A DNA stretch of 64,000 nucleotides, taken from an uncultured bacterium (lineage in GTDB: Bacteria; CAIJMQ01). Made by a program: the position numbers and the translations under genes. The DNA lies in NCBI GenBank assembly GCA_903821905.1, contig CAIJMQ010000001.1, positions 2,267-66,266 on the forward strand. The letters run 5' to 3'. Positions 4,252 to 58,421 of the stretch are shown here, piece by piece (positions within the stretch are counted from its first letter, which is position 1; every line of letters starts with the position of its first letter). The notes under the pieces are model-generated. The model was not told the DNA's origin and did no database searches. It worked only from the letters and a program-made list of their open reading frames with translations.

Positions 4252-4349
4252 GCGCCGGGTTAGGTTATGAGGCGAACAATTGTTGTGCCGATGGAGTTTT
4301 AGTTTCTCATTCTTGCCTCAATATTCTATTTACCTTATAATCTTCTCAA

Positions 4350-5778: not shown

Positions 5779-5811
5779 TTAATAAAGTAAAAGAGGGAGG
5801 TTAAGTAATAT

Positions 5812-7386: not shown

Positions 7387-7442
7387 AGAAATATGATAAA
7401 ACTTAAACTTAACAATAAAAAACAATTTCATAGGAGGAAGAT

Positions 7443-9515
7443 ATGATAAAAAAATATCCACCGATTAATCCTAGATTCCCGCATTTTCTTCACGGCGGTG
7501 ATTATAATCCCGAACAGTGGCAGGATACGCCTAAAGTTTGGGATGAGGATATCCGTTTAATGAAGCTTTCGCATTGCAATACTATGTCAGTCGGAATATT
7601 TTCCTGGGTTAGTTTGGAACCGGAAGAAGGCAAATTCACGTTTGGATGGCTTGATACTATTATGGATAAATTTTCTAAGAATGGGATTTATGCAGTTCTT
7701 GCAACTCCAAGTGGTGCCCGACCTGCCTGGATGTCTAAAAAATATCCTGAGGTGCTTAGGGTGAATTCAGATCGGGTAAGAATATTACACAGCGGTCGCC
7801 ACAACCATTGTTTTACATCTCCTATTTACCGCGAAAAATGCAGAATCATAAATCAGAAACTTGCCGAAAGATACAAAGACCATCCTGCGCTTTTCGTCTG
7901 GCATATTTCAAACGAATATGGTGGTGATTGTCACTGCGAGCTTTGTCAGGAAGCTTTCAGGAAATGGTTGAAGAATAAATACGGAACACTTGATAAACTC
8001 AACCATGCTTGGTGGACAAGATTCTGGAGCCATACTTTTACCGATTGGTCTCAAATAGAATCTCCTGCTCCATATCCGCACGGTGAAAGTTCAGTTCATG
8101 GTATGAACCTTGATTGGAAACGTTTTGTGACATATCAGACAGTAGATTTCTTCAAAAATGAAATTGTTCCTCTTAGAAAAATCACTCCTAAAATACCTGT
8201 GACGACAAACTTTATGGGAACATACCAGGGGTTAAATTATTGGAAGTTTGCAGATGAATTAGATGTTGTTGCTTGGGATAACTATCCCCAGTGGCATGGT
8301 TGGGAAGAAGACTGGATGCTTGGTTGTAAGGTGTCTTTTGTTCATGATATCAACCGCTGTATTAAAGGCGGTAAACCGTTTATGTTGATGGAAAGCACTC
8401 CGAGCATGCAAAACTGGGCTGATGTATGCAAACCCAAACGACCAGGCATGCATCTCTTATCTTCTATTCAGGCTGTTGCGCACGGTGCGGATACCGTCCA
8501 GTATTTCCAATGGCGCAAGAGTAGGGGGAGCTGTGAGAAATTTCACGGTGCAGTAGTTGACCACTGCGGACACGAGAATACACGTGTTTTTCACGATGTA
8601 ACTGAAGTTGGTAAGACAATTGAGAAACTCGATGCAGTAATTGGAACTACAGTAAGACCTGAGGTAGCTCTTATTTTCGATTGGGAAAATAATTGGGCTA
8701 TTGACGATACTCAAGGTCCACGCCGTTATAAGAAAGATTATCAGTCAACTTGCGAGAATCATTATCGTCAGTTCTGGATTAGAGGCATACCCGTAGATGT
8801 CATAAATATGGACTGTGATTTCTCTAAGTACAAAATTGTAATTGCTCCTATGCTTTATATGGTTAGACAAGGCGTAGCAAAGCGTTTGGACAATTTTGTA
8901 CAGAGGGGGGGAACATTAATTGCCACGTATTGGACAGGCATAGTAGATGACAATGACCTTTGCTTCTTGGGAGGATTCCCCGGCCCGCTTAGAAAAGTGC
9001 TTGGTATATGGTCTGAAGAGATTGATGCTTTATATGATAAGGACAGAAATTATGTTGTCCCTTTCAAAAATAACCCGCTTAAACTTTCAGGCAAATATGA
9101 AGCAAGAGAACTATGCGATTTAATCCACGCAGAAAAGGCAAAAGTTCTTGCTGAATATAAGCAGGATTTCTATGCAGGACGACCTGCGCTTACCGTTAAT
9201 AAGTTTGGCAGAGGCGAAGCGTATTATATGGCTTCCCGCAACGATGAGAAGTTCCTGAATGATTTCTATCAAGCCATAATCAAAAAACTTAATATCAGAA
9301 GAGTTATAGATACCAAATTACCTCAAGGGGTTACAGCGCAAGTCCGCACAGACGGTAAAAAAGAGTTCGTGTTTCTTATGAACTTCAAACAGGAAAAGCA
9401 GGAAGTACAGTTAGGCAAAACTTCATATAAGAATCTATTGAATGGAAAAACAGTGAGTGGTAAATTGGTCCTTCCATCTTTTGGCATAGCAGTGCTAGAA
9501 AGAGCAGAGAGATAA
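7443..9515 (+). CDS. Beta-galactosidase, GH42.
   Basis: N-terminal GGDYNPEQW and ISNEYGG motifs and a length of about 690 aa match the GH42 BgaB type. No signal peptide. Confidence 0.85.
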   Translation: MIKKYPPINPRFPHFLHGGDYNPEQWQDTPKVWDEDIRLMKLSHCNTMSVGIFSWVSLEPEEGKFTFGWLDTIMDKFSKNGIYAVLATPSGARPAWMSKKYPEVLRVNSDRVRILHSGRHNHCFTSPIYREKCRIINQKLAERYKDHPALFVWHISNEYGGDCHCELCQEAFRKWLKNKYGTLDKLNHAWWTRFWSHTFTDWSQIESPAPYPHGESSVHGMNLDWKRFVTYQTVDFFKNEIVPLRKITPKIPVTTNFMGTYQGLNYWKFADELDVVAWDNYPQWHGWEEDWMLGCKVSFVHDINRCIKGGKPFMLMESTPSMQNWADVCKPKRPGMHLLSSIQAVAHGADTVQYFQWRKSRGSCEKFHGAVVDHCGHENTRVFHDVTEVGKTIEKLDAVIGTTVRPEVALIFDWENNWAIDDTQGPRRYKKDYQSTCENHYRQFWIRGIPVDVINMDCDFSKYKIVIAPMLYMVRQGVAKRLDNFVQRGGTLIATYWTGIVDDNDLCFLGGFPGPLRKVLGIWSEEIDALYDKDRNYVVPFKNNPLKLSGKYEARELCDLIHAEKAKVLAEYKQDFYAGRPALTVNKFGRGEAYYMASRNDEKFLNDFYQAIIKKLNIRRVIDTKLPQGVTAQVRTDGKKEFVFLMNFKQEKQEVQLGKTSYKNLLNGKTVSGKLVLPSFGIAVLERAER

Positions 9516-10745: not shown

Positions 10746-10774
10746 TTGAGATTTTGGCGCAGTATAGATATAAT
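10746..10774 (+). promoter_or_regulatory. Sigma70-type promoter of the hydrogenase/MTHFR/hypF operon.
   Basis: TTGAGA (10746-10751), 17-nt spacer, TATAAT (10769-10774). The SD AAGGAG lies 6 nt upstream of the ATG at 10844. Confidence 0.5.
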
Positions 10775-10843
10775 TCCACTCTTCAAGGTAGCAAAATATG
10801 AATTTGGACTTCTCATTTAAGCCATAGTAATAAGGAGATAAAT

Positions 10844-11890
10844 ATGCGGTATGTGAGTTTGCAGAAGGACAAGTTACCCCAGTTCGTCAATTCTTTGCAA
10901 AAAAAGTATAAAGTTGTTGCTCCCGTGAAGAAAGAAAATCTGTTTGTATTTGCTACGATAGAAGACCCCGAAGAAGTAGAACTTGATTATATGCCTACAA
11001 TACTACCTCCCAAAAAATATTTCCTTCCGCAACACGAAAAATTAGGAAGTTTTGTGAAAGATAATGTTGCGATGGCGGATACCAATATTGATGTTGAGCC
11101 AACTGTTTTGTTTGGCGCGCATACCTGTGATATTGAGGGTATAGAATGTCTTGATATTGTTTTCCACGATACGCCTGCAGACCCTTATTTCGGAAGAAGG
11201 AAAAAATCTATCATTATCATAGGTTATGAGTGCATGAAACCGTGCGATGAATATTCTACGTGCGTTACTATGGATACGCTCAATCCCAGAGCCGGTTATG
11301 ACATTATGATTACGGATATCGGCGATAAATATATTCTATACATAAATTCACCCGAAGGTATGGGGATAATAGGGAAAAACCCGATTTTTGGGAAAGTTGA
11401 AAATGAACGTGATGTGAAGACGAAACTCTTGAAACTCAGGGAAGATAAAGTGAAAAATTTTAAAGTTCAGATTGATGCTGATTATAAGGAACTTAATAAA
11501 ATATTCGGCACTTCTTATAACAGTAAAACATGGCAAGATGTGGGGAAGAGATGTGTTTCCTGCGGCAATTGCACGGCTGTATGCCCTACGTGTTATTGCT
11601 TTGATATAAACGATGAAGTTAAGCTTGATATGAGTGGCGGGAAAAGGGAAAGAGTGTGGGATTCCTGCCAGCTTGATGAATTTGCAATGGTTACAGGCGG
11701 TGAGAATTTCCGTAAAGAACGTTCTTCAAGACAACGGCACCGATATTACAGGAAATTTGATTATTCCGTAAAAAAATACAGCAAGTTTTTCTGTGTAGGA
11801 TGTGGAAGATGTACCCGCACTTGTATGGCTGATATTAGTTTGATTGAGACTGTAAATGAATTGGCAAAGGAGCATAAAAATGCAAAGTAA
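10844..11890 (+). CDS. hydB: Cytoplasmic [NiFe] hydrogenase (group 3b / sulfhydrogenase-type) beta subunit: Fe-S protein, HydB/AsrA-like.
   Basis: Two Cys clusters, CVSCGNCTAVCPTCYCF and CVGCGRCTRTC. It is the first gene of a beta-gamma-delta-alpha set. Confidence 0.8.
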   Translation: MRYVSLQKDKLPQFVNSLQKKYKVVAPVKKENLFVFATIEDPEEVELDYMPTILPPKKYFLPQHEKLGSFVKDNVAMADTNIDVEPTVLFGAHTCDIEGIECLDIVFHDTPADPYFGRRKKSIIIIGYECMKPCDEYSTCVTMDTLNPRAGYDIMITDIGDKYILYINSPEGMGIIGKNPIFGKVENERDVKTKLLKLREDKVKNFKVQIDADYKELNKIFGTSYNSKTWQDVGKRCVSCGNCTAVCPTCYCFDINDEVKLDMSGGKRERVWDSCQLDEFAMVTGGENFRKERSSRQRHRYYRKFDYSVKKYSKFFCVGCGRCTRTCMADISLIETVNELAKEHKNAK

Positions 11891-12743
11891 ACTATTGAAA
11901 AAAGAGATGACAATTCCTGCCGATTTTTTATATTCGCCGCGGGCTGCTACGATAGTTAAAACCAAACAAATGACGGCAAATGAGAAATTTTTTGAAATCA
12001 AATTTGATGACGGAGAACCCCTTGGGCATGAGCCGGGACAATTTATTCAACTTTCTATTTTCGGGATAGGTGAAGCTCCTGTTGGTATTTGTTCGTCTCC
12101 GACAAAAGAAGATAGAAGCACTTTTGAAGTTTGCGTGCGGAAAGTAGGGACATTTACCAATGCGTTACATAAACTTGATGTAGGCGATAAACTCGGCATC
12201 AGAGGTCCTTATGGAAGAGGGTTCCCGATTGATGAACTCAAAGGTAATGATGTTCTTATTGTTGCGGGAGGGCTTGGTATTGTTCCGCTTCGGTCTCTTA
12301 TAAATTTTATTATTGATAGAAGAAGGGATTTCGGTAATGTAATGATACTACTTGGTTGTAAAGGTCCCAAAGACAGGCTTTTCACCGATGATATGAAAGA
12401 ATGGGAACGCATGCTTAATATCAATTATGCATGTACTGTTGATAGAGCTGACCCTGATTGGAAAGGAAACGTAGGTGTAATTACTACTCTTATGCCGGGT
12501 GTTCATATTGATAAAAACAGAACATATGCCGTTGTTGTCGGTCCGCCCATTATGTATAAATTTGTAATAGCTGAACTTCTCAAGAAAGGTCTGTCTGAAA
12601 ACCAGATAATCCTTTCCTTGGAACGCCGGATGAAATGCGGTCTCGGCAAATGCGGGCATTGCCAGATAAATAGTGTATATGTATGCAAAGATGGTCCAAC
12701 ATTTACCTATGCTGAATTAAAAGGATTGGGGGAGGCGTTATGA
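11880..12743 (+). CDS. hydG: Hydrogenase gamma subunit: FAD/NAD(P)-binding oxidoreductase with a C-terminal 2Fe-2S site (HydG/AsrB/PyrK-like).
   Basis: Ferredoxin-reductase-like fold motifs and the C-terminal CGLGKCGHCQ. I choose the start ATG at 11880, which is preceded by AAGGAG. The ORF-track start at 11856 lacks an SD. Confidence 0.8.
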   Translation: MQSKLLKKEMTIPADFLYSPRAATIVKTKQMTANEKFFEIKFDDGEPLGHEPGQFIQLSIFGIGEAPVGICSSPTKEDRSTFEVCVRKVGTFTNALHKLDVGDKLGIRGPYGRGFPIDELKGNDVLIVAGGLGIVPLRSLINFIIDRRRDFGNVMILLGCKGPKDRLFTDDMKEWERMLNINYACTVDRADPDWKGNVGVITTLMPGVHIDKNRTYAVVVGPPIMYKFVIAELLKKGLSENQIILSLERRMKCGLGKCGHCQINSVYVCKDGPTFTYAELKGLGEAL

Positions 12744-13516
12744 GCCAGAGTAAAAACAAAAAAGTGCGCATTGCTTTATTTGATTTTGCCGATTGCGAAG
12801 GTTGCCAGCTCCAAGTTACTTATCTTAATGACCAGTTGGTTGGACTTTTGGAACACTGTGAAATAGTGAATTTTAGAGAGGCAATTTCAGAAAGAAGCGA
12901 TGATTATGATATAGCCCTTGTTGAAGGTTCAATTACAAGAAAACACGATGAAGAACGCGTCAAAAAAATACGCGAGAATGCAAAGATACTGATTGCTTAT
13001 GGTTCATGTGCTTGTATAGGCGGAGTGAACGGTTTAAGGAAAAAATTCACTCAAGAAGAAGCAAAAGATATAGTTTATAAAGGCAGGGAATTTCCCATTG
13101 ATGTAGGAGAACCAAGACCGGTTCACGAAGTCGTTAAAGTTGATTATTTTATATACGGTTGTCCTACTAATAATGAAGAAACAATAAAAGCACTGAAATC
13201 AATTCTTATCGGCAAAGGTTATACTCCGCCCAGATATCCTGTTTGTGTCGAATGTAAACTAAAAGAAAACGTCTGCTTGTTTGAAAAAGGTCAGGTTTGT
13301 CTGGGACCGGTGACAAGGGGCGGTTGCGGCGCTTGGTGTACGAGTTATGGAAATACTTGTTACGGATGCAGAGGACTTCTTGATAAACCCGCGCAAGAGG
13401 GACAGATGGATATATTAAAGAAAAACGGATATACACTGGAAGAACTAAAGCAAAAATTCGAAACTTATAATTTATGCAGAATGATGGGAGAGCAAAATGC
13501 AACAGAAAAATCTTAA
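12740..13516 (+). CDS. hydD: [NiFe] hydrogenase small (delta) subunit.
   Basis: N-terminal FDFADCEGCQ small-subunit proximal-cluster motif plus further Cys ligands. The start overlaps the stop of the upstream gene (ATGA). Confidence 0.85.
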   Translation: MSQSKNKKVRIALFDFADCEGCQLQVTYLNDQLVGLLEHCEIVNFREAISERSDDYDIALVEGSITRKHDEERVKKIRENAKILIAYGSCACIGGVNGLRKKFTQEEAKDIVYKGREFPIDVGEPRPVHEVVKVDYFIYGCPTNNEETIKALKSILIGKGYTPPRYPVCVECKLKENVCLFEKGQVCLGPVTRGGCGAWCTSYGNTCYGCRGLLDKPAQEGQMDILKKNGYTLEELKQKFETYNLCRMMGEQNATEKS

Positions 13517-14831
13517 TATAAATGTTGATTACTTGACCCGGGTTGAAGGACACGGGGATATCGTAATCAATGTTAAGGAAGGTAAGCTCGAGAAATGTGA
13601 GCTTCAGGTAATAGAAGCTCCCCGGTTTTTCGAGGCTATGCTGAGAGGCAGGTCTATATTTGAAGCACAGCATATTACTTCCAGAATTTGCGGAATATGT
13701 TCAACGGGACACAGCCTTGCTTCGATAAAAGCTTCTGAAGATGCAGCCGGTTTTACACCTACGCAACAAACTGTTCTACTTCGGAAACTGCTCCTTCATT
13801 ATGAAACTCTTGACAGCCATCTTTTACACGCGGCTTTTCTTGTGGCGCCGGATGCTTTGGGTGTGCCCAGTGTTCTTCCGCTTTTAACTACTCATAAAGC
13901 TCTTGTTCTCATGGTATTGGGTATGAAGAAAGATTATAGCGACCTTTGCGATATTCTTGCGGGAAGACATACTCATCCCATTACAGTATGTCCGCGCGGA
14001 TTTACTAAGCTTCCCACGAAAAAAGAACTCCAGAAAACAAAAGATATTCTTACCCAGCATGTAGCAAAACTTAACAAGATTGTAGACCTCTTTACGACAT
14101 TAAAATTGCCAAACTTTGAGAGAGCGACAGAATACGTGGCATTGACCCATCCCGAAGAATATGCATTTTTAGACGGTAATATTACTACCACGGATATGAG
14201 GGATTCCGTTATTCATCCCCACGATTATAAAGAAGTTATTCATGAGTTTCATGTTGCTCACAGCACATCAAAACATTCTAAAAATAAAAGAGATTCATAT
14301 ATGGTAGGTGCTTTGGCAAGGATTAATATCAACTTTAATAAACTAAACAAGCAGGCAAAATCCGTTGCAAGTGCGCTGAATTTTAAAACTCCTTCGTATA
14401 ATCCATATATGAATACGATTGCCCAGGTTATTGAATCGGCTCATTGTTTATACGATGCAATAGCAATCGTTGACCATTTCTTGAAGATAGGCATTAACTA
14501 TGATGAAGTTGTCAGTTCCTGGCCGAAAGTTGACGAATGGCCTACATTTAAATGCAAAGCAAGAAAAGGCGTGGGTGCTGTTGAAGTCCCGCGCGGGATT
14601 CTTATACACGAATATACCATCAATGAGCGCGGTATAATAAAAAATGCCAATTGCTGTATTCCGACTAACCAGAACCTTGCCAATATCGACCTTGATATGA
14701 AGAAACTCGTTCCCGAGGTATTGGATAAATCAAAAGAAGAGATTACACTACTTGCCGAAATGTTAGTTAGAGCATATGACCCGTGCATTTCATGTTCGTG
14801 CCATATGCTTGATGTGAAATTTATCGAGTAA
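13497..14831 (+). CDS. hydA: [NiFe] hydrogenase large (alpha) catalytic subunit.
   Basis: N-terminal RVEGHG and the L1 motif RICGICSTGH. The C-terminal L2 motif DPCISCSCH binds Ni-Fe and marks the protease cleavage site. Confidence 0.9.
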   Translation: MQQKNLNINVDYLTRVEGHGDIVINVKEGKLEKCELQVIEAPRFFEAMLRGRSIFEAQHITSRICGICSTGHSLASIKASEDAAGFTPTQQTVLLRKLLLHYETLDSHLLHAAFLVAPDALGVPSVLPLLTTHKALVLMVLGMKKDYSDLCDILAGRHTHPITVCPRGFTKLPTKKELQKTKDILTQHVAKLNKIVDLFTTLKLPNFERATEYVALTHPEEYAFLDGNITTTDMRDSVIHPHDYKEVIHEFHVAHSTSKHSKNKRDSYMVGALARININFNKLNKQAKSVASALNFKTPSYNPYMNTIAQVIESAHCLYDAIAIVDHFLKIGINYDEVVSSWPKVDEWPTFKCKARKGVGAVEVPRGILIHEYTINERGIIKNANCCIPTNQNLANIDLDMKKLVPEVLDKSKEEITLLAEMLVRAYDPCISCSCHMLDVKFIE

Positions 14832-14840
14832 TACCAATTA

Positions 14841-15302
14841 ATGGAGAAAACACTCGTCATAGGTGTAGGTTCTGTATTAAGAAGTGACGATGGTATAGGA
14901 ATAAGAGTAGTAGAAGAGCTTCAGAAGGAAAAATTCCCCTCCAAGGTTAAGTTCATAAGTGGCGATATCTCTGGTTTAGAGCTTATAAAATATTTCTCCG
15001 ACTTTGCGCGGGTTATTATTATTGATGCTGCGGATATAAAAGAAAAACCCGGCACGATTAAGTCATTCAAGGGTTCCCAGCTAAAGAAAAGCGATTTCTC
15101 CGATATTGTTTCAACTCATGGCATGAATCTTATTGAGACATTAACACTTGCGGAAAAGTTGGATATCTCACCTGAAATAGTTATTGTAGGCATCCAGCCG
15201 AAAGATACTTCATTCAAATTAGAACTGACACTTGAAATAGAAGAGAAAATACCTTATATAGTAAATGCAGTTAAAAAGATAATTAATAGAGATAAAAAAT
15301 GA
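14841..15302 (+). CDS. Hydrogenase maturation endopeptidase (HycI/HoxW/HyaD family).
   Basis: The IGVGSVLRSDDGIGIRVV motif, a size of 153 aa, and its position directly downstream of the large subunit. Confidence 0.85.
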   Translation: MEKTLVIGVGSVLRSDDGIGIRVVEELQKEKFPSKVKFISGDISGLELIKYFSDFARVIIIDAADIKEKPGTIKSFKGSQLKKSDFSDIVSTHGMNLIETLTLAEKLDISPEIVIVGIQPKDTSFKLELTLEIEEKIPYIVNAVKKIINRDKK

Positions 15303-17296
15303 TTGATTATACGAAATACCGGCTGAAATCAAAGGAAGAACTCGCGGAGATTCTCTCTGGAATTTCCAGTATTTTTGTTGTCTTGTGCCTGAAATGTTAC
15401 AAAGAATTTCAGGTTGTAGAAGAGCCGGAATGTCCTGATTTCCAGGAATATCTAAAAGAGAAAGGGATAAAATTTGCAGGATGTATTGACCAAGATTTTT
15501 TATGCAATAACTATCTCACAGATAAAAAATTGGCTGAAGTTAAGCTCAATGATGCGGAAGCGGTCGGCGTTATATCCTGCGGTTTAGGAATTCAGAATAT
15601 TGCTAAATCATTGGAAGGTAAAAGAGTTATAGCTCTTGCTGATTCAATTCCCCATGGCGGAAATGCAACAAGTATTGTAGGCTATCATGGAATAGCACTT
15701 GAGAGCGAGAAATGTTCTGCCTGCGGAGAGTGCTATTTAAATATTACAGGCGGGATTTGTCCTATAGTAGATTGTGCCAAGAGTCTTTTAAATGGTCCCT
15801 GCGGCGGAGCTAAAAACGGCAAATGCGAAGTAAATTCCAACCTTGACTGTGCATGGGAAAAAATATACGAACGGCTTAAAAACCAAAACAGAGAATTCAT
15901 AAGTAAAAAGATAGAAATAAGGGATTATGGCAAATTCAAATTTGATAATAAAAAGAAGCTTTCTCTTTCTAATCAGGCACGAAGAAAAGAAAGTTTTTAC
16001 GGCGGTGTATATCCCTTAGATAAGAAAGAAGATACCCAAAATCTTGCCATTGCAGTTTTTCCTGAACCCCAACAAGTAACTATATTCCTCTCTCAACATA
16101 CAGGTTCTCCGGCTGAAGCTTTAGTAAAAGTCGGCGATACGGTAAAAATTGGGCAGAAAATAGCAAAAAGCACAGGACTGATATCTTCCTCGATTCATTC
16201 GAGTGTCAACGGTAAAGTTGTTTCTTTGAAAAAAAGAATTCATCCTTCCATATTAAAACCTCTCCCTGCGATAGTTATTGAAAACGATGGTTTGGATGAG
16301 TTTGATTCTTCAGTAAAACCTATTTTAAATTGGGAAAACGAGTCAAAAGAGTCATTGACACAGATATTGCAAGATAAAGGGATTGTCGGTTTAGGCGGTG
16401 CTATGTTTCCCACTCACGTTAAACTCTCTGCGCCGAAACCTGTTGATACTTTGATTATCAATGGCTGTGAATGTGAACCGTATCTGAGTGCAGATAACAG
16501 AGTGATGGTCGAGTATCCCGAACAAATAATGAAGGGTATTAGTGTTGCGAAAAAACTTCTCGGTGTGGAAAATGTTATTGTCGTAGTTGATGAGAATAAA
16601 CCTGAAGCGATTGAGAAACTTAAGAGTTTACCAAACATCAAAGTTGAAGTTCTGAAAACCAAGTATCCTCAAGGCGCAGAAAAGATATTAGTAAAGAAGT
16701 TGCTTAATAGGGAAGTTCCTGAAGCGGGTTTACCTTTTGATGTCGGGGTTGTAGTTTCCAATGTGAGCACAATTTTTGCAATCTATCAGGCAATCTTTGA
16801 AGGACTGCCTCTGATTCAAAGAGTGGTTACGGTTTCCGGTGACAGTATAGTGCGAAGCGGTAATTTTTTGATGAAAATAGGCACTTCCCTAAACGATATC
16901 GTCAAGTTCTGCTTTAAAGGAAATAAAGAAAAAATTTTTGAAGAATATCATATTAAAATGGGTGGTCCGATGATGGGTATAGACCAGATTAGTCTTGATT
17001 CAAGTGTTATCAAAGGTTCAACGGGATTCACTTTCCTGAAGAAAAACCCAGCTGAGCTTTCGGAAGAGCGCGCCTGTATAAAATGCGGTCGTTGTGTTGA
17101 AGTATGTCCTGTGGAACTTGAACCTCTGTATTATGCCTATTACGGACAGAAGAAAATGTGGAATGAAACTATCAAGTATAATGTTGCCAATTGTATAGAA
17201 TGCGGCGCATGCGAATATGTCTGTTCATCAAAAATAAGTCTTTTGAGTTTAATAAAAAAGGCAAAGAAAAATGCTCATAACAAAGTTAAAAAATAA
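15299..17296 (+). CDS. Fusion protein. The N-terminal domain is MetV-like and Cys-rich (MTHFR_C, PF12225-type). The C-terminal module is an RnfC-like NADH-binding, 2x[4Fe-4S] unit. It is the candidate electron-input subunit of an NADH-dependent methylene-THF reductase.
   Basis: The N-terminal 200 aa carry CGLGIQ...CSACGECYLNITGGICPIVDCAKSLLNGPCGGAKNGKCEV, which is near-identical in pattern to the next gene. The C-terminus carries GGAMFPTHVKL and INGCECEPYLSADNRVM (RnfC SLBB/51K-like) plus two CxxCGxCxxxCP ferredoxin motifs. The start overlaps the protease stop (ATGA). Confidence 0.7.
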   Translation: MIDYTKYRLKSKEELAEILSGISSIFVVLCLKCYKEFQVVEEPECPDFQEYLKEKGIKFAGCIDQDFLCNNYLTDKKLAEVKLNDAEAVGVISCGLGIQNIAKSLEGKRVIALADSIPHGGNATSIVGYHGIALESEKCSACGECYLNITGGICPIVDCAKSLLNGPCGGAKNGKCEVNSNLDCAWEKIYERLKNQNREFISKKIEIRDYGKFKFDNKKKLSLSNQARRKESFYGGVYPLDKKEDTQNLAIAVFPEPQQVTIFLSQHTGSPAEALVKVGDTVKIGQKIAKSTGLISSSIHSSVNGKVVSLKKRIHPSILKPLPAIVIENDGLDEFDSSVKPILNWENESKESLTQILQDKGIVGLGGAMFPTHVKLSAPKPVDTLIINGCECEPYLSADNRVMVEYPEQIMKGISVAKKLLGVENVIVVVDENKPEAIEKLKSLPNIKVEVLKTKYPQGAEKILVKKLLNREVPEAGLPFDVGVVVSNVSTIFAIYQAIFEGLPLIQRVVTVSGDSIVRSGNFLMKIGTSLNDIVKFCFKGNKEKIFEEYHIKMGGPMMGIDQISLDSSVIKGSTGFTFLKKNPAELSEERACIKCGRCVEVCPVELEPLYYAYYGQKKMWNETIKYNVANCIECGACEYVCSSKISLLSLIKKAKKNAHNKVKK

Positions 17297-17915
17297 GGAA
17301 GAACTCCTTGCGTCTTTTGAGAAAAAGCCGTTCATCATAAAATGTTTCGGCTGTAAGGAAGTATATTTTCCCGAAGACAAGATTGAAGAGTTACTAAAAG
17401 AAAACGAGAGCAAAATAACAGGAGTTGCCCGTTTGGATTATCTCTGCAGGGAAGAGTTCAGTAAACTTTATCTGGCAAAATACGGCCAGCAGATTAAAAA
17501 TTCCGGTGTAGTAATAGTTTTTTCCTGCGGAGTAGGTGTTCAAGTTATAGCGAAACTGTGTCCTGAAAAAGAAGTTCTTGCCGGCTGTGATACTTATTAT
17601 CTGGACGGCTTTCAGGGATTATCAGTCCAGGATTTAAACTGCGAACAATGCGGCGAATGTTATCTGAATTATACCGGCGGCATTTGTCCTATTACGGCTT
17701 GTTCCAAAGGTTTATTGAATGGTCAATGCGGCGGTGCTAAAAACGGCAAATGTGAAGTGAATGTAGAAATGGATTGTGGCTGGGAATTAATATATAAGAA
17801 ATTAAAAGGTCTGAAGCTTGAGAATGTAACAAAACAGTCAAAGGTTCTAATCAGAAACTATAAACGCATTCTTGATGAATTAGGGTATAATAAAGACCAT
17901 ATTAAAGAGGAATAA
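17271..17915 (+). CDS. metV: MetV-like small subunit of methylene-THF reductase (MTHFR_C domain, Cys-rich, Zn/Fe-S-like).
   Basis: CGVGVQ...CEQCGECYLNYTGGICPITACSKGLLNGQCGGAKNGKCEV. It is a paralogue of the N-terminal domain of the upstream fusion protein. Confidence 0.7.
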   Translation: MLITKLKNKEELLASFEKKPFIIKCFGCKEVYFPEDKIEELLKENESKITGVARLDYLCREEFSKLYLAKYGQQIKNSGVVIVFSCGVGVQVIAKLCPEKEVLAGCDTYYLDGFQGLSVQDLNCEQCGECYLNYTGGICPITACSKGLLNGQCGGAKNGKCEVNVEMDCGWELIYKKLKGLKLENVTKQSKVLIRNYKRILDELGYNKDHIKEE

Positions 17916-17916
17916 A

Positions 17917-18789
17917 ATGGATTTTGCTAAAAAAATACAAAGCGGACAATTTGTCATTACTTCGGAAATCGGTCCTCCTAAGGGTGTGGAAATAGAAGGA
18001 GCTTTAAAAGAAGCAGAAACTCTAAAAGGTAAGGTGGACGCTTTCAACGTTACAGATTTACAGAGTTCTGTAATGAAATTGGGCTCTCTTGCTACATGCC
18101 GTCTGCTTGTTGAAAGAGGGTTAGAACCGATATTCCAGATTACTTGCCGCGACAGAAACAGGTTGGCTTTACAATCGGATTTACTTTCTGCTTATGTGCT
18201 GGGAATAAGAAATGTTCTTGTTCTTACCGGTGACCATCCTGTTTTAGGCGACCATCCACAAGCAAAACCCGTATTTGACCTTGATTCTATAAGTTTACTG
18301 AAAGCGGCAACAGGTCTTATGGAAGGTAAAGATATGGTCGGCAATGACCTTGTTGGTAAACCGGAATTTTTGCTCGGTGCAGTTGTCAATCCGAGTGCAG
18401 ACCCTTTAGAACCTCAGATTATCAAGATGGAGAAAAAGATCCAAGCAGGTGCAAAATTTTTCCAGACTCAAGCAATATATGATGTAAAGAGTTTTGAAAA
18501 TTTCATGAACATAGTCAAAAAATTCAATGTTCCCATTCTTGGCGGAATAGTTCTTTTGAAATCCGCCGGTATGGCAAAATTCATGAACGAGAAAGTTGCA
18601 GGTATAAATGTTCCCGACAAATATATCGCGATGATGGCAGAGGCAAGTAAAGAAGATAGACCTAAAGTCAGTGTTCAAATAGCTGCAGAGCTGATAAAAG
18701 GCATGAAAGGTCTCTGTCAGGGAATACACATTATGCCTCTTGGCTGGGAGAAACATGTCCCGTCTGTTCTACAGGAATCTGGATTCTAG
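17917..18789 (+). CDS. metF: 5,10-methylenetetrahydrofolate reductase catalytic subunit (MetF, acetogen/clostridial type).
   Basis: 290 aa with TIM-barrel MTHFR motifs (ITCRDRNR, VLTGD). It starts 2 nt after the metV stop. Confidence 0.7.
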   Translation: MDFAKKIQSGQFVITSEIGPPKGVEIEGALKEAETLKGKVDAFNVTDLQSSVMKLGSLATCRLLVERGLEPIFQITCRDRNRLALQSDLLSAYVLGIRNVLVLTGDHPVLGDHPQAKPVFDLDSISLLKAATGLMEGKDMVGNDLVGKPEFLLGAVVNPSADPLEPQIIKMEKKIQAGAKFFQTQAIYDVKSFENFMNIVKKFNVPILGGIVLLKSAGMAKFMNEKVAGINVPDKYIAMMAEASKEDRPKVSVQIAAELIKGMKGLCQGIHIMPLGWEKHVPSVLQESGF

Positions 18790-18831
18790 AAATATACACC
18801 CCATATTTTCTGCATCGGTAACCTAAAAGCT

Positions 18832-21147
18832 ATGAAGAAAATCTCTCGGTTTAGAATAGAAATCAAAGGCAAGGTTCAGGGGGTAGGTTTTAGGCCCACT
18901 GTTTACAGATACGCTGTTCAAAGAAAGCTAATGGGGTGGGTGAGTAATAGCTCTACAGGTGTAATTATAGAGATTCAAGGGAAGAAAAATGATGTGGAGA
19001 GTTTTATTGCCATGTTAAAGAAATTTCCACCTTCCCGTGCAGAAATAACAGCTTTTCAAATCACCGAAATCAAACCCAAAAGAGAAACATCCTTCAAAGT
19101 TCTTTCAAGTATTATCGGAAAAGAGATGAAAACAAGAATATCTCCCGATATTGCCGTCTGTAAAGATTGTTTGAAAGAACTTTTTGATAAAAAAGATAGG
19201 CGCTATCTTTACCCTTTCACAAACTGCACTAACTGCGGACCGCGTTTTACCATCATAAAAAACATCCCTTACGACAGACCTAATACCACAATGAAAAGGT
19301 TCAAGATGTGTAAGTCCTGCCAGAGTGAATATGACAATCCTTCTAACCGCAGATTCCATGCTCAACCAAATGCTTGCAGCGTATGTGGTCCTAAGGTGTT
19401 ACTGATACAAAAAACCAAAGTTAAAAGTGCAGGGACAGAAGCTATAAAGAAAACTACTGAACTACTCAAAGAGGGGAGGATTGTTGCGATAAAAGGATTG
19501 GGAGGATTTCATCTTGCCTGTGATGCTCTGAATGATGAAACAGTTAAGACATTACGGAGCAGAAAATACAGAGAAGATAAACCATTTGCTCTTATGGCGA
19601 AAGATTTAAAAACAATAAAACAATATTGTGAGGTTTCACGGGAAGAAGAAAAACTTCTACTCTCCTGGAAATCTCCGATTGTTCTCCTAAAGAAAAAAGC
19701 GAATTCATCTATTTCAAAACATATAGCACCAAATAACAAATATCTCGGCTTTATGCTTCCGTATACTCCTTTACACCATTTATTATTTTCTAAACTCACG
19801 GTTCTTGTTATGACAAGTGGTAATATAAGCGATGAACCGATTGCGTACGATAACGATGAAGCGATGAAACGGCTTAAGAATATAGCTGACTATTTTCTTA
19901 TTCACAACCGCGATATTTATATCCGCTCTGATGATTCCGTTACAAGAATTTTCCCCCCTCCCAAAAAGGAATTTATTCTCCGTCGTTCCAAAGGTTATAT
20001 TCCTGACCCAATCCGCAATCCGAATTCCGCAATCCGCAATGTAATCCTTGCTTGCGGTGGACATTCCAAAAACACTTTTGCCATAGCTAAAGGCGAAGAA
20101 GTAATCCTAAGCCACCACATAGGAGATTTGGAAAATGTAGAGACATATAATTCCTTTGTAAACGGTATAGAACATTTCAAGAAATTACTTGAAATTAAAC
20201 CCAAAATTATTGCTCACGATTTACATCCTGAATATTTCTCTACTCAATATGCCAAGCAATTTGCTTCTCGCCACTCATCATTTACCACTGTTGCTGTTCA
20301 GCATCACCATGCACATATCGCTTCAGTTATGGCTGATAATCTATTGAATAATCGTAGAGTAATAGGTGTTGCTTTTGACGGAACAGGGCTTGGTTCTGAC
20401 GGGAATTTATGGGGAGGTGAATTCCTGATTGCTGATTATAAGGATTTCAAACGGTTCGCACATCTTAAATATATTCCTCTTCCCGGAGGAGAAAAGGCAA
20501 TAAAAGAACCGTGGAGAATAGCATTTAGTTATCTTTATTCCATATTCGGTGATGGACTCTGGAGGCTTGACATAAACTTTGTCAAAAAACTTGATAAGAA
20601 AAAGAGTAAAGTTTTAAAGGGAATGCTCGACAAAGGTATCAACACACCTCTCACTTCAAGCGTCGGTAGATTGTTTGATGCAGTCGCTTCCTTAATCGGT
20701 ATAAGAGATACGGTAAATTATGAGGGACAAGCGGCGATAGAATTGGAGATGGCAATTGAGGAAAGACAAAAGGTAAAAGGCAAAACGCAAAATTACGGAT
20801 ATACAATACAAAAAGAAAACAATATCTACATTATTAATCCGGATGGAATCATCAAAGGAATAGTGGAGGATTTAAAGCGTGGGTTATCCAAAGAAATTAT
20901 TTCTCTAAAGTTCCACAACACAATTGTTAAGCTGATTGTTAAGATGGCTAAGAAACTCAGAGAGGATACGGGATTAAAAGAAGTTGCTCTTGGTGGGGGT
21001 GTGTTCCAGAATATGTTTATTTTAACTGGTGCTTACAACGGACTTAAAAAAGTAGGATTTAGAGTGTATATCCACAAAAAAGTCCCGACAAATGACGGCG
21101 GTCTTTCATTAGGACAGGCGGTGATTGCAGCGCATCAGGATGATTGA
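18832..21147 (+). CDS. hypF: [NiFe] hydrogenase maturation carbamoyltransferase HypF.
   Basis: Acylphosphatase domain and two CxxC-x18-CxxC zinc-finger pairs (CKDC...CTNC; CKSC...CSVC). YrdC-like and Kae1/HypF carbamoyltransferase domains are present. 771 aa. Confidence 0.95.
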   Translation: MKKISRFRIEIKGKVQGVGFRPTVYRYAVQRKLMGWVSNSSTGVIIEIQGKKNDVESFIAMLKKFPPSRAEITAFQITEIKPKRETSFKVLSSIIGKEMKTRISPDIAVCKDCLKELFDKKDRRYLYPFTNCTNCGPRFTIIKNIPYDRPNTTMKRFKMCKSCQSEYDNPSNRRFHAQPNACSVCGPKVLLIQKTKVKSAGTEAIKKTTELLKEGRIVAIKGLGGFHLACDALNDETVKTLRSRKYREDKPFALMAKDLKTIKQYCEVSREEEKLLLSWKSPIVLLKKKANSSISKHIAPNNKYLGFMLPYTPLHHLLFSKLTVLVMTSGNISDEPIAYDNDEAMKRLKNIADYFLIHNRDIYIRSDDSVTRIFPPPKKEFILRRSKGYIPDPIRNPNSAIRNVILACGGHSKNTFAIAKGEEVILSHHIGDLENVETYNSFVNGIEHFKKLLEIKPKIIAHDLHPEYFSTQYAKQFASRHSSFTTVAVQHHHAHIASVMADNLLNNRRVIGVAFDGTGLGSDGNLWGGEFLIADYKDFKRFAHLKYIPLPGGEKAIKEPWRIAFSYLYSIFGDGLWRLDINFVKKLDKKKSKVLKGMLDKGINTPLTSSVGRLFDAVASLIGIRDTVNYEGQAAIELEMAIEERQKVKGKTQNYGYTIQKENNIYIINPDGIIKGIVEDLKRGLSKEIISLKFHNTIVKLIVKMAKKLREDTGLKEVALGGGVFQNMFILTGAYNGLKKVGFRVYIHKKVPTNDGGLSLGQAVIAAHQDD
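20009..20041 (+). repeat. Imperfect heptanucleotide tandem repeat (CAATCCG-like, about 4.5 units) inside hypF.
   Basis: Seen directly: CAATCCG CAATCCG AATTCCG CAATCCG CAATG. It encodes PIRNPNSAIRN. Confidence 0.6.
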
Positions 21148-21151
21148 TTGG

Positions 21152-21931
21152 TTAGAATTTTTTTCTTTCTTTATCAGGTAAAGCAACTTTAGCTGAATAT
21201 TGTTTCATATTGATAGTTTGCAAGTGATTCAAATGATGTTTTTCTCTTAAATAACTGATAATTTTATTTTCTTCTTTTCTATCAAAATTGCAATCGGCAA
21301 TCAATGTACCTTCTTTTTCCCTTAAGACTTCCGGATCACAGAGTCCTTTTGAAAGAGTCTGATACATGTATGATTGTTTGAAAGTTTGATAATTGGGAGA
21401 TAGTGTATTTACGCAAAGTTGTAATTTGTTTCGATAAGTTAAAATAGCACCATCTAACTCGTTAAAGTGGGAATAAAAAGCACTCTCCTTAAAATAATAA
21501 CAAGTCATCAAATCTGTCCTTTGCATACTAAATAAATCTTGTGTGCCGAATAGTGTTGCATGAAAACGCATGTTGAGTAACGAATCATTATGGCCTGACG
21601 AATGTAGCCAGATGATATGAAAGATGTTATGATTTGGATCATAATTCTTCATTTGTTCTACACCATCAGATATAATAGCGTATAACCTGTTTCTCGGACC
21701 AGTAGGTGTTTCATTCCCTACGATTTCCCCTCTTTTTAATGATTCTCTTTCTCGCTTTGTTTCTTCTAGATCATCACTTTTAACTTTTAGTTCAATAATA
21801 TATTTATCTTTTTCATGCCATGCATTTATATCAGGAGTTTTTACATCAGCCTGAGATGGAATCTTCTTCGCCTCAAGTCCAATTTCTTTTAATATTTCTA
21901 TAACAACGTTTTTTGAATAGTTATCTTTCAT
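21152..21931 (-). CDS. Hypothetical protein with an N-terminal PD-(D/E)xK-type nuclease-like motif (restriction-endonuclease/Hjc/NERD-like fold). The C-terminal 180 aa match no known family.
   Basis: Motif ...VKTPDINAWHEKDKYIIELKVK (PD ... ExK). I prefer the start at MKDNYSKN (21931) because the longer ORF-track start (22102) overlaps the upstream GNAT gene by 131 nt. The stop is 5 nt from the hypF stop, convergent. Confidence 0.45.
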   Translation of the reverse strand: MKDNYSKNVVIEILKEIGLEAKKIPSQADVKTPDINAWHEKDKYIIELKVKSDDLEETKRERESLKRGEIVGNETPTGPRNRLYAIISDGVEQMKNYDPNHNIFHIIWLHSSGHNDSLLNMRFHATLFGTQDLFSMQRTDLMTCYYFKESAFYSHFNELDGAILTYRNKLQLCVNTLSPNYQTFKQSYMYQTLSKGLCDPEVLREKEGTLIADCNFDRKEENKIISYLREKHHLNHLQTINMKQYSAKVALPDKERKKF

Positions 21932-21971
21932 AATTTTATTTTTATCTCTCCACTCTTTCTCTGTCAATTTA

Positions 21972-22691
21972 CTATAAATCAAACCGCATAACGATAGAAT
22001 CTTTAGCTTTTTCCGGGTCGATGCCGGCAGATTTTGCTTGTTCTTCAAGCGTCGTGACGAATTCTTTATATTCGCATAAATAGGGATGAGGGAATCTATC
22101 AACCATTTTGAACCCTAAATTTTCCCAGAATGTATGTCCTGCGCTTCCCGTTGTCTGGTAGATGATGGGGAGGTCTTCAAAAGAATCGGTTTCTATTTGT
22201 TTCCATCCGTTTTCTCTTGCCCAATCAATAAGTGTTTTCACCATTCGTGAACCTATACCTTTGCGCTGATAGGGATTTTTCTCCTGACCGGGAGAACCTA
22301 TCATCAGACAGTGGACTTTCAATGTCTTGTCTTCAAGTTTATCAAGTGGTGGGAAATCCATTTCTGTAAAATCATCTGACGGTCCTATGGGATAATCCTG
22401 CTGGAGGCAAAGAGAACCTGCATCTTTCATCTTACATATCGTTTTTGGATAAAAGCGTATCTTTCCTATAATGTTGTCACCATCTCGCGCTACGACGACG
22501 CAAGCTCCATATACATCGGTGAGTTTTGTGAGTAATGCTTTGTTTCTGGCGCGGTATTGTTCCCACGGCATCTTATTGTTAGACGGCAATTGGTCTATGG
22601 TTTTGCGTGTGAGTGGTCCACTGTGAAGGCATCGCCACAGAATAAAATCCTTCGTCATCATTTCGATAACGATATCATTGGGCATATTCAT
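21972..22691 (-). CDS. GNAT-family N-acetyltransferase.
   Basis: Acetyl-CoA binding motif QRKGIGSRMVKTLIDWARENG. 239 aa. Confidence 0.8.
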   Translation of the reverse strand: MNMPNDIVIEMMTKDFILWRCLHSGPLTRKTIDQLPSNNKMPWEQYRARNKALLTKLTDVYGACVVVARDGDNIIGKIRFYPKTICKMKDAGSLCLQQDYPIGPSDDFTEMDFPPLDKLEDKTLKVHCLMIGSPGQEKNPYQRKGIGSRMVKTLIDWARENGWKQIETDSFEDLPIIYQTTGSAGHTFWENLGFKMVDRFPHPYLCEYKEFVTTLEEQAKSAGIDPEKAKDSIVMRFDL

Positions 22692-23416
22692 TTTTTACTT
22701 TTACCGGTTACGATACAATCGAGCATATTAACCAAAGCTTCAGGTGCAGTACGTTGCGGGTTATGGTCTGATTCTAATTTATAAATAGGCCATCCTCGTT
22801 TCTTTGCTCTTTCTGCATGAAATACAAAATCATTTTCATTAGCAATATGATTTGGTTGTACCATAAGAATATAAGATGCAGGCAGCTTTCTCGCGGATTG
22901 ATTCTTGAGTATGATAGGCTCTGTAAAAGTTTTTGCAGATTGTGGCACGTCCTTTGGGAATGGCTGGTCTGCTTCAACCCAATGAGGTACAACAAAGCCG
23001 CCTTCCAATTTATATTCATTCCATTTACCACGAGGTTTCTGTATGCTTTCTACGCTCTCCCCATTTTCAGGAAGGAAGGCATCAATGTATATAAGACGTT
23101 GAATTCGGTCAGGTATCCTGTCTGCAACACCGGTAACGACCATTCCACCATAACTATGGCCTATAAGAATAACATTATGCAGGTCTTCGAATATAAACAC
23201 ATTAACTATGTCATTGATATGGGTGGATAAACTTATATCGGGTGTGGCTAAATGCATTCGTTCGCCGAGTCCTGTAAGTGATGGTCTATAGACAGTATAG
23301 CCTTTCCGGGTGAGCATTGAAGCTGCTTGGCGCCACGTCCAACTACCGCCCCAAGCGCCGTGGACAATGACTAAAACTGGTTTATCTGATGTGTTACTTC
23401 TTTTAGTGTGATTCAT
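22688..23416 (-). CDS. Alpha/beta-hydrolase fold esterase (methyl-esterase/salicylate-esterase-like).
   Basis: LVIVHGAWGGSWTW oxyanion region and the nucleophile elbow IGHSYGG. My start at MNHTKRSN gives a 6-nt overlap with the upstream gene. The alternative start at 23485 would overlap the SDR gene by 65 nt. Confidence 0.75.
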   Translation of the reverse strand: MNHTKRSNTSDKPVLVIVHGAWGGSWTWRQAASMLTRKGYTVYRPSLTGLGERMHLATPDISLSTHINDIVNVFIFEDLHNVILIGHSYGGMVVTGVADRIPDRIQRLIYIDAFLPENGESVESIQKPRGKWNEYKLEGGFVVPHWVEADQPFPKDVPQSAKTFTEPIILKNQSARKLPASYILMVQPNHIANENDFVFHAERAKKRGWPIYKLESDHNPQRTAPEALVNMLDCIVTGKSKK

Positions 23417-23420
23417 ATTA

Positions 23421-24356
23421 TTACTTTTCCAGCGCAATGTAATAATCGAGATGTTCCAGGATTTTTTGCCAGGGGTCGAACTCAAGGCCGAAATCCTTTT
23501 TCATCTCGGAGACATCCCAAAAACTTCCACCTTCTCCCCAGCCCTTATCAACCAACTCCACGTGGCTCTTTGAACCTATCTTTTCCACAGCTGCTTTAGC
23601 GATGTCATACCATGAGACAAATTTTTTGGAGAGGCCGAGATATGTTTTCCGATTCATATTCCCGTGAAGAACTTCTATATAGAGCTTTGCCAAGTCGCCT
23701 GCCCAAATGAATTGAGTGCCGTCATTCTTGGTGACGGATATAGGTTCGTTTTGTACTGCGTTTCTTACAATGTTGCGAAAACGCGTATCACCCTGGATAC
23801 TGCCTCCAGGAACTACGGGATTTCCAAATACGTAGCCTGGGCGGATGATGTTGACCCGTATCGGATAAAGATGTGATTGTGCAGTGATAAAATTTTCACT
23901 GGCTGCCTTCGTTGCGCCATAGAATGTTGCAGGGTGTTGTTTGGTAGTTGAGGTAACACTTTTGAGGTCTTTCTCGGCTTCGTCCCGTGGACCCATGTAA
24001 AGGCTGTCATTCACTGCCGTGGACGAGGTGTAGATAAAGTGTTTCACTTTTGCCTGCGCCGCCGCGTTGGACAGAAACACAGTCGGCAGTGTATCGTCTA
24101 AAAGAACTTCCCATCCGGTTTTCTTGGTGTAATTCAGCGCGACCAGGATACAGGCATCTTTTCCAATGACTAATTTCCCGAGCAGCTTTCGGTCAGTGAT
24201 GTTGCCCTGCACAATTTCAAGCGCATTGATTTTGTTAAGTTCCGGCACCTTGTTACGGTTGCGGGCCAGGATGGTTACGTGATGTCCATGTTTCACGAGT
24301 TCCATGGCTACGTACGAACCGATGAAACCCGTTCCACCAGTCAAGAATATTTTCAT
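23421..24356 (-). CDS. NAD-dependent epimerase/dehydratase (extended SDR family).
   Basis: N-terminal MKIFLTGGTGFIGSYV Rossmann motif and the YxxxK region (YGATKAASE). Confidence 0.85.
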   Translation of the reverse strand: MKIFLTGGTGFIGSYVAMELVKHGHHVTILARNRNKVPELNKINALEIVQGNITDRKLLGKLVIGKDACILVALNYTKKTGWEVLLDDTLPTVFLSNAAAQAKVKHFIYTSSTAVNDSLYMGPRDEAEKDLKSVTSTTKQHPATFYGATKAASENFITAQSHLYPIRVNIIRPGYVFGNPVVPGGSIQGDTRFRNIVRNAVQNEPISVTKNDGTQFIWAGDLAKLYIEVLHGNMNRKTYLGLSKKFVSWYDIAKAAVEKIGSKSHVELVDKGWGEGGSFWDVSEMKKDFGLEFDPWQKILEHLDYYIALEK

Positions 24357-24380
24357 GATTTCTCCTTTTTTCTGCCGATT

Positions 24381-25301: not shown

Positions 25302-25514
25302 ATGTGTTTAGCGATACCAATGAAGGTGGTAAAAATAGAGGGCCCTAGTGGAATTGTTGAGCTTGGAGGAGTGAAGAGGAATATTAATCTTGAACTCCTT
25401 GATGGTGTTAGAGTTGGGGAATATGTAATAGTCCACGCAGGTTTTGCTATACAGAAGATAGATGATAAAGAAGCAGAAGAGACGATTGAGATTTTAAAAG
25501 AAATAGCTAAATGA
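25302..25514 (+). CDS. hypC: Hydrogenase maturation factor HypC.
   Basis: Starts with MCLAIP, the essential Cys2 signature of HypC/HybG. 70 aa. Confidence 0.95.
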   Translation: MCLAIPMKVVKIEGPSGIVELGGVKRNINLELLDGVRVGEYVIVHAGFAIQKIDDKEAEETIEILKEIAK

Positions 25515-26605: not shown

Positions 26606-26701
26606 AGTCACAGTTCTTCTTTGACTTCTTTCTTTATATCTTATATATTTAGCTCTCAACAACTGAAATTAAAGGTAACATACAAACAAAAGGAGATGGT
26701 T

Positions 26702-58392: not shown

Positions 58393-58421
58393 AGAATCTT
58401 CTTTTAAGCCGTGACAGGGAA

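Follow-up and report, generated by a model that had tools for sequence, protein, structure and literature searches.

The locus described here raises the question of why the genes of a soluble [NiFe] hydrogenase and those of a methylenetetrahydrofolate reductase (MTHFR) should stand together in what appears to be one operon, at positions 10746-21147 of a 64,000-nucleotide (nt) stretch of an uncultured bacterium (contig CAIJMQ010000001.1, assembly GCA_903821905.1), the whole of which is referred to as the window. How the strongly exergonic reduction of methylenetetrahydrofolate (methylene-THF) is wired into Wood-Ljungdahl energy metabolism is a long-standing question, and the solutions proposed so far, docking of RnfC2 to Rnf and coupling of Ech to MetVF, lack genetic or biochemical support. 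In at least eight uncultivated lineages, we found the genes of a type III MTHFR joined to those of the cell's hydrogenase in a conserved operon, with either of two hydrogenase types (group 3b or Mbh). The parts all belong to known families, and it is their linkage at the operon level that is conserved and apparently undescribed. Gene identities, domain content, operon layout and the conservation of the linkage could all be established directly.

According to the open reading frame (ORF) list, the plus strand between 10844 and 21147 carries nine genes: hydB, hydG, hydD, hydA, a maturation protease gene, rnfC2, metV, metF and hypF. An initial annotation of the stretch had counted ten genes running from one promoter; the number was too high, although the tight same-strand unit and a promoter candidate in front of it were both found. 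From hydB to metF, every junction overlaps or leaves a gap of 9 nt at most. The hydG frame overlaps hydB (by 11 nt if hydG starts at 11880), hydD and hydA overlap by 20 nt, and the protease gene follows hydA after 9 nt. ATGA overlaps, which had been described at three junctions, join hydG to hydD and the protease gene to rnfC2, whereas rnfC2 and metV overlap by 26 nt; the gap between metV and metF measures 1 nt and not 2 nt. Only hypF stands further apart, 42 nt after metF and with no obvious Shine-Dalgarno sequence. The promoter candidate (10746..10774, plus strand) is a sigma-70-like consensus match, TTGAGA and TATAAT spaced by 17 nt, that agrees at 11 of 12 positions and has the top score in the 15.5 kb between 7000 and 22500. 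It lies within a 111-nt intergenic gap, the only sizeable one, 3' of a tetratricopeptide repeat gene, with the end of its -10 element 69 nt 5' of the start of hydB, which is itself preceded by an AAGGAG ribosome binding site. Promoter-like sites as a whole showed no excess over chance (35 against 44 in shuffled sequence), nor were terminator-like sites enriched (14 against 11.2 ± 3.6); the five terminator-like matches on the plus strand inside the operon are weak and all fall within coding sequence. No Rfam match to a riboswitch or leader RNA in the 5' untranslated region was found within the operon. The common strand, the short or overlapping junctions, the upstream promoter candidate and the lack of a convincing internal terminator argue for a single operon, and one transcript across the whole region would be expected.

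Genes were assigned by Pfam and NCBIfam profile searches, which confirmed the identities first proposed for the hydrogenase (PF00374), MetF (PF02219), MetV (PF12225), RnfC (TIGR01945) and HypF (TIGR00143). The four hydrogenase subunits are encoded first. hydB (10844..11890) specifies an AsrA-like Fe-S beta subunit of 348 residues (PF17179 Fer4_22, 110 bits, E value of 1.4e-31), and hydG (11856..12743) the AsrB-like gamma subunit, with the FAD_binding_6, NAD_binding_1 and DHODB_Fe-S_bind domains expected for flavin adenine dinucleotide (FAD), NAD(P) and a [2Fe-2S] cluster (PRK08345, 277 bits). The true start of hydG is probably at 11880, giving 287 residues, as judged from a GGAG located 8 nt before the ATG and from orthologues called at the same length. 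The small subunit is encoded by hydD (12740..13516, 258 residues; PF01058, 1e-25; HydD, 189 bits) and the large subunit, of group 3b type, by hydA (13497..14831, 444 residues; PF00374). The best NCBIfam models for the small, beta and gamma subunits were ShyB, ShyC and ShyD, HydB scoring 258 bits with ShyB and 241 bits with the HydB model; these are archaeal equivalog models, and none of the scores reached their cut-offs. In HydA, the two CxxC motifs that bind Ni are RICGICSTGH and DPCISCSCH, the second followed by an 8-residue C-terminal tail. Its best matches in the Protein Data Bank are the 3b enzymes 5yxy (222 bits) and 9nez (219 bits), ahead of Mvh of group 3c (140 bits), group 3d enzymes (113 and 108 bits) and Frh (103 bits). 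Database matches to HydA were mostly from Omnitrophota, including the enzymes of Candidatus Aadella gelida (72% identity) and Candidatus Tantalella remota (69%), both of which have been classed in group 3b (PMC8542988). By every sequence feature examined (ligands, tail, four subunits and closest relatives), HydBGDA thus appears to be a group 3b [NiFe] hydrogenase, as first annotated, and its domains predict NAD(P)H-linked H2 turnover. The same beta-gamma-delta-alpha set with a protease is found in Pyrococcus furiosus SHI and SHII, in the cytosolic hydrogenase of Thermococcus kodakarensis and in the 3b enzymes of Omnitrophota. In the window, the maturation endopeptidase (14841..15302, 153 residues; PF01750, 86 bits; HycI/TIGR00072, 129 bits) comes directly after hydA, and the maturation carbamoyltransferase gene hypF (18832..21147, 771 residues; TIGR00143, 835 bits) closes the unit.

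The three genes inserted between the protease gene and hypF encode the MTHFR. rnfC2 (15299..17296) specifies an NADH/flavin mononucleotide (FMN) subunit of 665 residues (PF12225, 100 bits; RnfC_N; Complex1_51K; TIGR01945, 479 bits), in which a MetV-like domain (approximately residues 1-230, with PF12225 at 124-205) precedes an RnfC domain (232-661) with two [4Fe-4S] clusters. Over its whole length, the RnfC domain aligns with RnfC of Acetobacterium woodii (9eri_C, 359 bits), and in an alignment of 16 homologues the Gly-rich motif GxGGAMFP, NGCECEP and both four-Cys cluster motifs (eight Cys) were invariant. metV (17271..17915) encodes the small Fe-S/Zn subunit (214 residues; PF12225, 96 bits), for which no solved relative was found by sequence, and metF (17917..18789) the catalytic TIM-barrel subunit (290 residues; PF02219, 130 bits, model positions 3-287 of 287; MTHFR part of PRK08645, 251 bits). 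Given these PF02219 and PF12225 assignments, the product of 17917..18789 is an MTHFR barrel and not a TIM barrel of another family, and the two Cys-rich domains likewise belong to the MTHFR, both as originally read.

The fusion of a MetV-like domain to RnfC was considered as a novelty of this locus and rejected. All 120 best database homologues of the 665-residue protein combine PF12225 with RnfC, the named ones coming from metagenome-assembled genomes (MAGs) of Omnitrophica, Ratteibacteria, Aerophobetes, Dehalococcoidia and Elusimicrobia, with identities of 80% to an Omnitrophica and 78% to a Ratteibacteria homologue, and A. woodii RnfC2 has the same architecture (PMC3315566, PMC8760232). Together with the mostly Omnitrophota matches of HydA, these two neighbors are the basis for regarding the bacterium of the window as Omnitrophota/Ratteibacteria-like. 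The latter carries a MetV-like N-terminal extension of ca. 220 residues and is cotranscribed with metV and metF (PMC3315566), and the purified RnfC2-MetV-MetF trimer is NADH dependent and nonbifurcating, with no stimulation by ferredoxin, which defines the type III MTHFR (PMC8760232). The window has the same three genes in the same order as A. woodii (Awo_c09290-09310) and Blautia spp., with the same extension, the same RnfC domain with FMN/NADH site and two [4Fe-4S] clusters, PF12225 in MetV and PF02219 in MetF. The initial annotation had contrasted MetFV paired with RnfC2, as in A. woodii, with MetFV paired with HydBGDA; this opposition does not hold, as the MetFV of the window does pair with RnfC2. 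By every sequence feature examined, RnfC2-MetV-MetF is a complete, ordinary type III enzyme, for which NADH:methylene-THF oxidoreductase activity can be predicted by analogy, and the hydrogenase is an additional neighbor. The RnfC2 of the window is only 44 to 49% identical to the Firmicutes homologues.

To see how rare such a neighbor is, we looked at 43 full-length RnfC2 homologues in the GTDB representative genomes, including Blautia, Robinsoniella, Lachnospiraceae and Oscillospiraceae. metV and metF directly follow rnfC2 at 40 of these loci, Blautia and Lachnospiraceae included, and none of the 43 showed a match (E ≤ 1e-4) to HypF, the protease or any subunit of the 3b and Mbh enzymes, with at least 5 kb of upstream flank available in 25 and at least 5 kb of downstream flank in 25. 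A locus with RnfC2 61% identical to that of the window (L091) reads fchA-folD-rnfC2-metV-metF and has no hydrogenase. At L091 and in A. woodii, the MTHFR genes keep company with fhs, fchA and folD of the Wood-Ljungdahl methyl branch, whereas in the window they lie between the hydrogenase/protease cassette and hypF. Conversely, the 3b operon of Ca. Aadella gelida (Rex-hypF-hypCDE-hypAB-hydBGDA-protease) has its hyp genes upstream and no MTHFR, whereas in the window the protease gene overlaps rnfC2 and hyp genes follow downstream. A full-text literature search found no description of a hydrogenase-rnfC2-metVF linkage, nor did the Omnitrophota genomics papers PMC10066038 and PMC8542988 contain one. 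The arrangement had been called nonstandard, which the survey supports, and in the literature searched it is apparently undescribed. Precedents for MetFV genetically tied to H2-related modules are the type IV HdrABC-MvhD-MetFV of Moorella thermoacetica and the MvhAGD-linked enzyme proposed for Acetothermia. The window differs from type IV in that its electron input is RnfC2 and its hydrogenase belongs to group 3b, not 3c, and brings an NAD(P) module of its own; no Hdr (CCG) or MvhD/FlpD domains were detected in the scanned ORFs of the window.

The linkage is conserved within a clade of MAGs labeled Omnitrophota or Ratteibacteria, whose RnfC2 proteins are 70 to 83% identical to that of the window and which is monophyletic on the RnfC2 tree (100% bootstrap). 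Its eight informative loci all have the order hydrogenase-protease-rnfC2-metV, and metF comes next in all of them except L094, where the contig ends inside metV. A scan of metagenomes for further close relatives returned only L092 (identical to L082), already in the set. The hydrogenase is a group 3b enzyme at four loci (window, L084, L085 and L088) and an Mrp-type membrane-bound group 4 enzyme at the other four: L081 (identical to L082, L083 and L092; 1-13503), L086 (1-13498), L089 (1-13663) and L094 (1-12470), whose RnfC2 proteins are 72 to 80% identical to that of the window. The Mrp-type cassette comprises 13 genes plus an MbhN-like ferredoxin-like subunit and its own HycI protease, and it sits directly 5' of rnfC2-metV, often overlapping it. 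To our knowledge from the literature searched, these Mbh-type loci are the first genetic link of an energy-converting hydrogenase to an MTHFR. A fifth 3b-type linked locus is probably represented by an 8,855-bp contig, since an RnfC2 homologue (P0007, 76% identical) and a HydA homologue (P0124, 85%) both have an NCBI contig of that size as their longest.

The proteases sort by hydrogenase type, with ca. 30% identity between types and 60 to 78% within a type, whereas RnfC2, MetV and MetF do not. The MTHFR of the window is closest to that of the Mbh-type L081 (RnfC2 80%, MetV 86% and MetF 94%), L088 (3b) pairs with L089 (Mbh) on the RnfC2 tree with 91% bootstrap, and the hydrogenase types are interleaved, the basal members of the clade being of Mbh type. 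This pattern could have arisen by repeated exchange of the hydrogenase cassette or by reciprocal loss from an ancestor with two hydrogenases. The second would fit with the report that Omnitrophota MAGs have a single hydrogenase, either 3b or 4g, read as a redox valve (PMC8542988).

Reciprocal loss is also part of an explanation in which the linkage is a historical accident, rnfC2-metVF having been inserted once between the structural and hyp genes of an ancestral hydrogenase locus, with cotranscription incidental and the present alternation of 3b and Mbh derived from an ancestor that held both cassettes in tandem. The confinement of the linkage to one clade, with none at the 43 other RnfC2 loci, in L091 or in the Aadella 3b operon, is what such an accident would produce, and the flanks are indeed plastic: in L081 and L085, metF is parted from hypF by unrelated genes, and the window has an insertion between hypF and hypC. 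Omnitrophota genomes are moreover streamlined (PMC10066038), so that short gaps are the norm. Yet eight lineages, down to 70% RnfC2 identity, have kept the exact hydrogenase-protease-rnfC2 adjacency while neighboring genes were reshuffled, and the protease-rnfC2 junctions, whose spacing varies between -23 nt (an overlap) and +30 nt (-4, -14, -23, +1 and +30 nt), were remodeled lineage by lineage and are still tight. The next relative outside the clade (L090, see below) also has rnfC2-metV together with a hydrogenase, although the genes are ordered differently. We therefore regard an accident of synteny as rather unlikely, although it has to be kept in mind.

The loss of the hydrogenase in one relative bears on both this explanation and on a physical one. 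L093 (1-6400; RnfC2 79% identical) retains intact rnfC2-metV-metF, and all that is left of the hydrogenase region is the final ca. 90 nt of a protease gene of 3b type, together with 23 codons of hypF. A HicA-type toxin-antitoxin pair occupies the former place of hypF, followed by the gene of an FKBP, and there are no hyp genes downstream. The MTHFR thus persists without a hydrogenase, as would be allowed if the linkage were incidental, and against what would be expected if HydBGDA docked on RnfC2-MetVF, for example through the Fe-S-rich HydB on the MetV-like domain, to pass electrons directly from H2 to methylene-THF. A super-complex of this kind might also bifurcate or confurcate to NAD(P) or ferredoxin, and Mbh-Mrp would do likewise at the membrane in the sister lineages, which would make the hypothesized Ech-MetVF coupling a reality. 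It would account for the translational coupling of the protease gene and rnfC2 (ATGA), for the tight junctions at all eight loci and for a linkage that outlasted changes of hydrogenase type. Earlier proposals on the energetics of acetogens include an MTHFR associated with the membrane, RnfC2 docked to Rnf and a complex of Ech with MetVF (PMC3315566, PMC8760232), and a hydrogenase-Hdr-MetVF link has been put forward for Acetothermia (PMC9586279). The layout of L090 (9274-22001; RnfC2 65% identical) also hints that RnfC2 and MetV can serve a hydrogenase: an ANTAR regulator, rnfC2, metV, Rex and HydB-like and HydG-like genes come first, followed by a small group 4 hydrogenase, HycI, HypA and HypF, with no adjacent metF, and the RnfC2/MetV pair may there work for the hydrogenase rather than for an MTHFR.

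Nevertheless, the immediate neighbor of rnfC2 is the protease gene and not that of a structural subunit, no adaptor such as MvhD occurs among the scanned ORFs of the window, and each module retains a full nucleotide site. The peripheral subunits of the 3b and Mbh-Mrp enzymes are unrelated, so that one docking interface cannot explain both linkages, and in A. woodii the trimer is sufficient by itself (PMC8760232). Of the two possibilities first raised for this layout, a super-complex and strict co-regulation, the separate NAD(P)(H) sites, the Mbh-type sister enzymes and L093 all speak against the former, which we consider improbable, and co-regulation is the better supported. The more general idea that, in this clade, the only hydrogenase of the cell and RnfC2-MetVF form a functional unit in which H2 directly drives methylene-THF reduction, tied to ion translocation in the Mbh lineages, seems to us no less doubtful.

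We favor instead, with a probability of about 0.6, a cotranscribed redox-balancing operon of an uncultivated Omnitrophota/Ratteibacteria-like fermenter, encoding two complete and separate enzymes that would be coupled through the NAD(P)H pool. HydBGDA, matured by the coencoded protease, HypF and the nearby hypCDBAE products, would interconvert H2 and NAD(P)H in the cytoplasm by way of its Fe-S clusters and the FAD/NAD(P) site of HydG. RnfC2 would oxidize NADH at its FMN site, and electrons would pass from its [4Fe-4S] clusters through those of MetV to the flavin of MetF, where methylene-THF would be reduced to methyl-THF. Coupling would thus require only the soluble NAD(P)H pool and common transcription, with no dedicated protein complex. 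At low H2, both enzymes could act as sinks for glycolytic reductant, while at high H2 the hydrogenase would run in uptake mode and H2 would drive the methyl branch through NAD(P)H, with the net reaction H2 + CH2-THF -> CH3-THF releasing ca. 41 kJ/mol (-41 kJ/mol; E0' of -414 and -200 mV). Cofactor use, the direction of flux and coupling by way of the pool are predictions of this scheme.

Coupling through the pool together with co-regulation is the best reading because each module has its own pyridine-nucleotide site: HydG keeps its FAD, NAD and [2Fe-2S] domains and RnfC2 its own nucleotide motif. The adjacency conserved across eight lineages with either hydrogenase type is suggestive of selection for coexpression, and Rex genes at related hydrogenase loci, one heading the Ca. 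Aadella 3b operon and another inside the L090 cluster, favor a functional co-regulation, as do the fermentative surroundings with their many glycoside hydrolase genes and the published view of Omnitrophota hydrogenases as redox valves (PMC10066038, PMC8542988). Several points weigh on the other side. Characterized 3b enzymes prefer NADPH, whereas the RnfC2 of A. woodii uses NADH, and if these preferences hold here the two enzymes would not share a pool without a transhydrogenase. The sister Mbh-type enzymes are ferredoxin dependent, and pool coupling would there need Rnf as an intermediary, which makes a single explanation for the whole clade less tidy. Matches to the Rex operator (TTGTGAA-N6-TTCACAA, up to three mismatches) were fewer in the window than expected (3 against 7.6), with none between 10 and 11 kb, and the promoter is a consensus match only. 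Finally, the only hint of a Wood-Ljungdahl pathway in the window is a fragment similar to RACo, the reductive activator of corrinoid proteins; the MTHFR may serve as an acetogenic sink or in methionine/C1 anabolism.

The RACo gene, at 106-1086, could also be taken as a sign that the MTHFR runs in the oxidative direction, with methyl-THF, supplied by corrinoid methyltransferases or by acetate cleavage, oxidized and the resulting NADH vented as H2 in syntrophy with H2 consumers. Group 3b enzymes are considered bidirectional, and for the Wood-Ljungdahl enzymes of Omnitrophota reverse or syntrophic operation has been suggested (PMC10066038). However, the path from methyl-THF (-200 mV) over NAD+ (-320 mV) to protons (-414 mV) is strongly endergonic, and the operon has no module for energy input. 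The context rich in glycoside hydrolases points rather to sugar fermentation in need of electron sinks, and oxidative operation is in our view very unlikely.

Regarding the redox-balancing operon that we prefer, the 3b version is a clonable set of genes of 8 kb with which it could be asked whether H2 and C1 reduction are coupled only through NAD(P)H or more directly. If co-regulation is all there is, the linkage would be a marker of reductant disposal in streamlined Omnitrophota and not a new mechanism. If, on the other hand, hydrogenase and MTHFR did form a functional unit in the Mbh lineages, they would show for the first time in nature the long-hypothesized MTHFR step that is coupled to a hydrogenase and conserves energy. 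A genetic link had been missing for the membrane couplings of MetVF to Ech or to Rnf that were hypothesized earlier (Oppinger et al. 2021; Poehlein et al. 2012). L081, L086, L089 and L094 supply one, although the Ech-MetVF hypothesis was framed for type II enzymes (MetVF only), those of Clostridium and Thermoanaerobacter, and the window has a soluble 3b enzyme.

The remaining maturation genes of the window are found on the plus strand downstream of the operon: hypC (25302-25514), hypD (25511-26605), hypB (27484-28155), hypA (28137-28505) and hypE (28472-29515). They are parted from hypF by five minus-strand genes (21152-25244), namely, a 316-residue gene without assignment and those of a GNAT protein, an alpha/beta hydrolase, an NAD-dependent epimerase and an SMP-30 gluconolactonase. 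The first of them, which is convergent, comes within 4 nt of the stop codon of hypF, and no terminator hairpin separates the two. In L086, hypFCDBAE are contiguous and located almost directly 3' of metF. Between hypD and hypB, the window carries the gene of an FkpA-like FKBP (26621-27403, plus strand) with a lipoprotein-like signal sequence; its position is conserved in L084, it is kept in L093 in the absence of hyp genes, and it is probably not a nickel chaperone of the SlyD type.

In L084, the closest relative for which DNA was available (RnfC2 83% identical), frameshifts break up almost all of the genes, which looks like uncorrected error of a long-read assembly and not pseudogenization. 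Compared with L084, the window has glycoside hydrolase (GH) genes inserted between radical-SAM/YggS genes and the hydrogenase operon. Genes of this kind occur at 2410-9515 and 57028-59789 and include a GH5 cellulase, a GH51 arabinofuranosidase, a GH42 beta-galactosidase and GH28, together with an N-acylglucosamine 2-epimerase-like gene. The RACo-type gene at the left edge of the window (plus strand) is called from a GVG start inside the gene, its matches being confined to the middle and C-terminal domains; the fragment suggests that a cluster for a corrinoid methyltransferase or acetyl-CoA synthase may lie directly upstream of the window. A cspA thermoregulator (RF01766, Rfam, 88 bits, full length) was detected at 1907-2273 on the minus strand, adjoining a small minus-strand ORF, and the syntenic place in L084 is occupied by a gene with a cold-shock domain.

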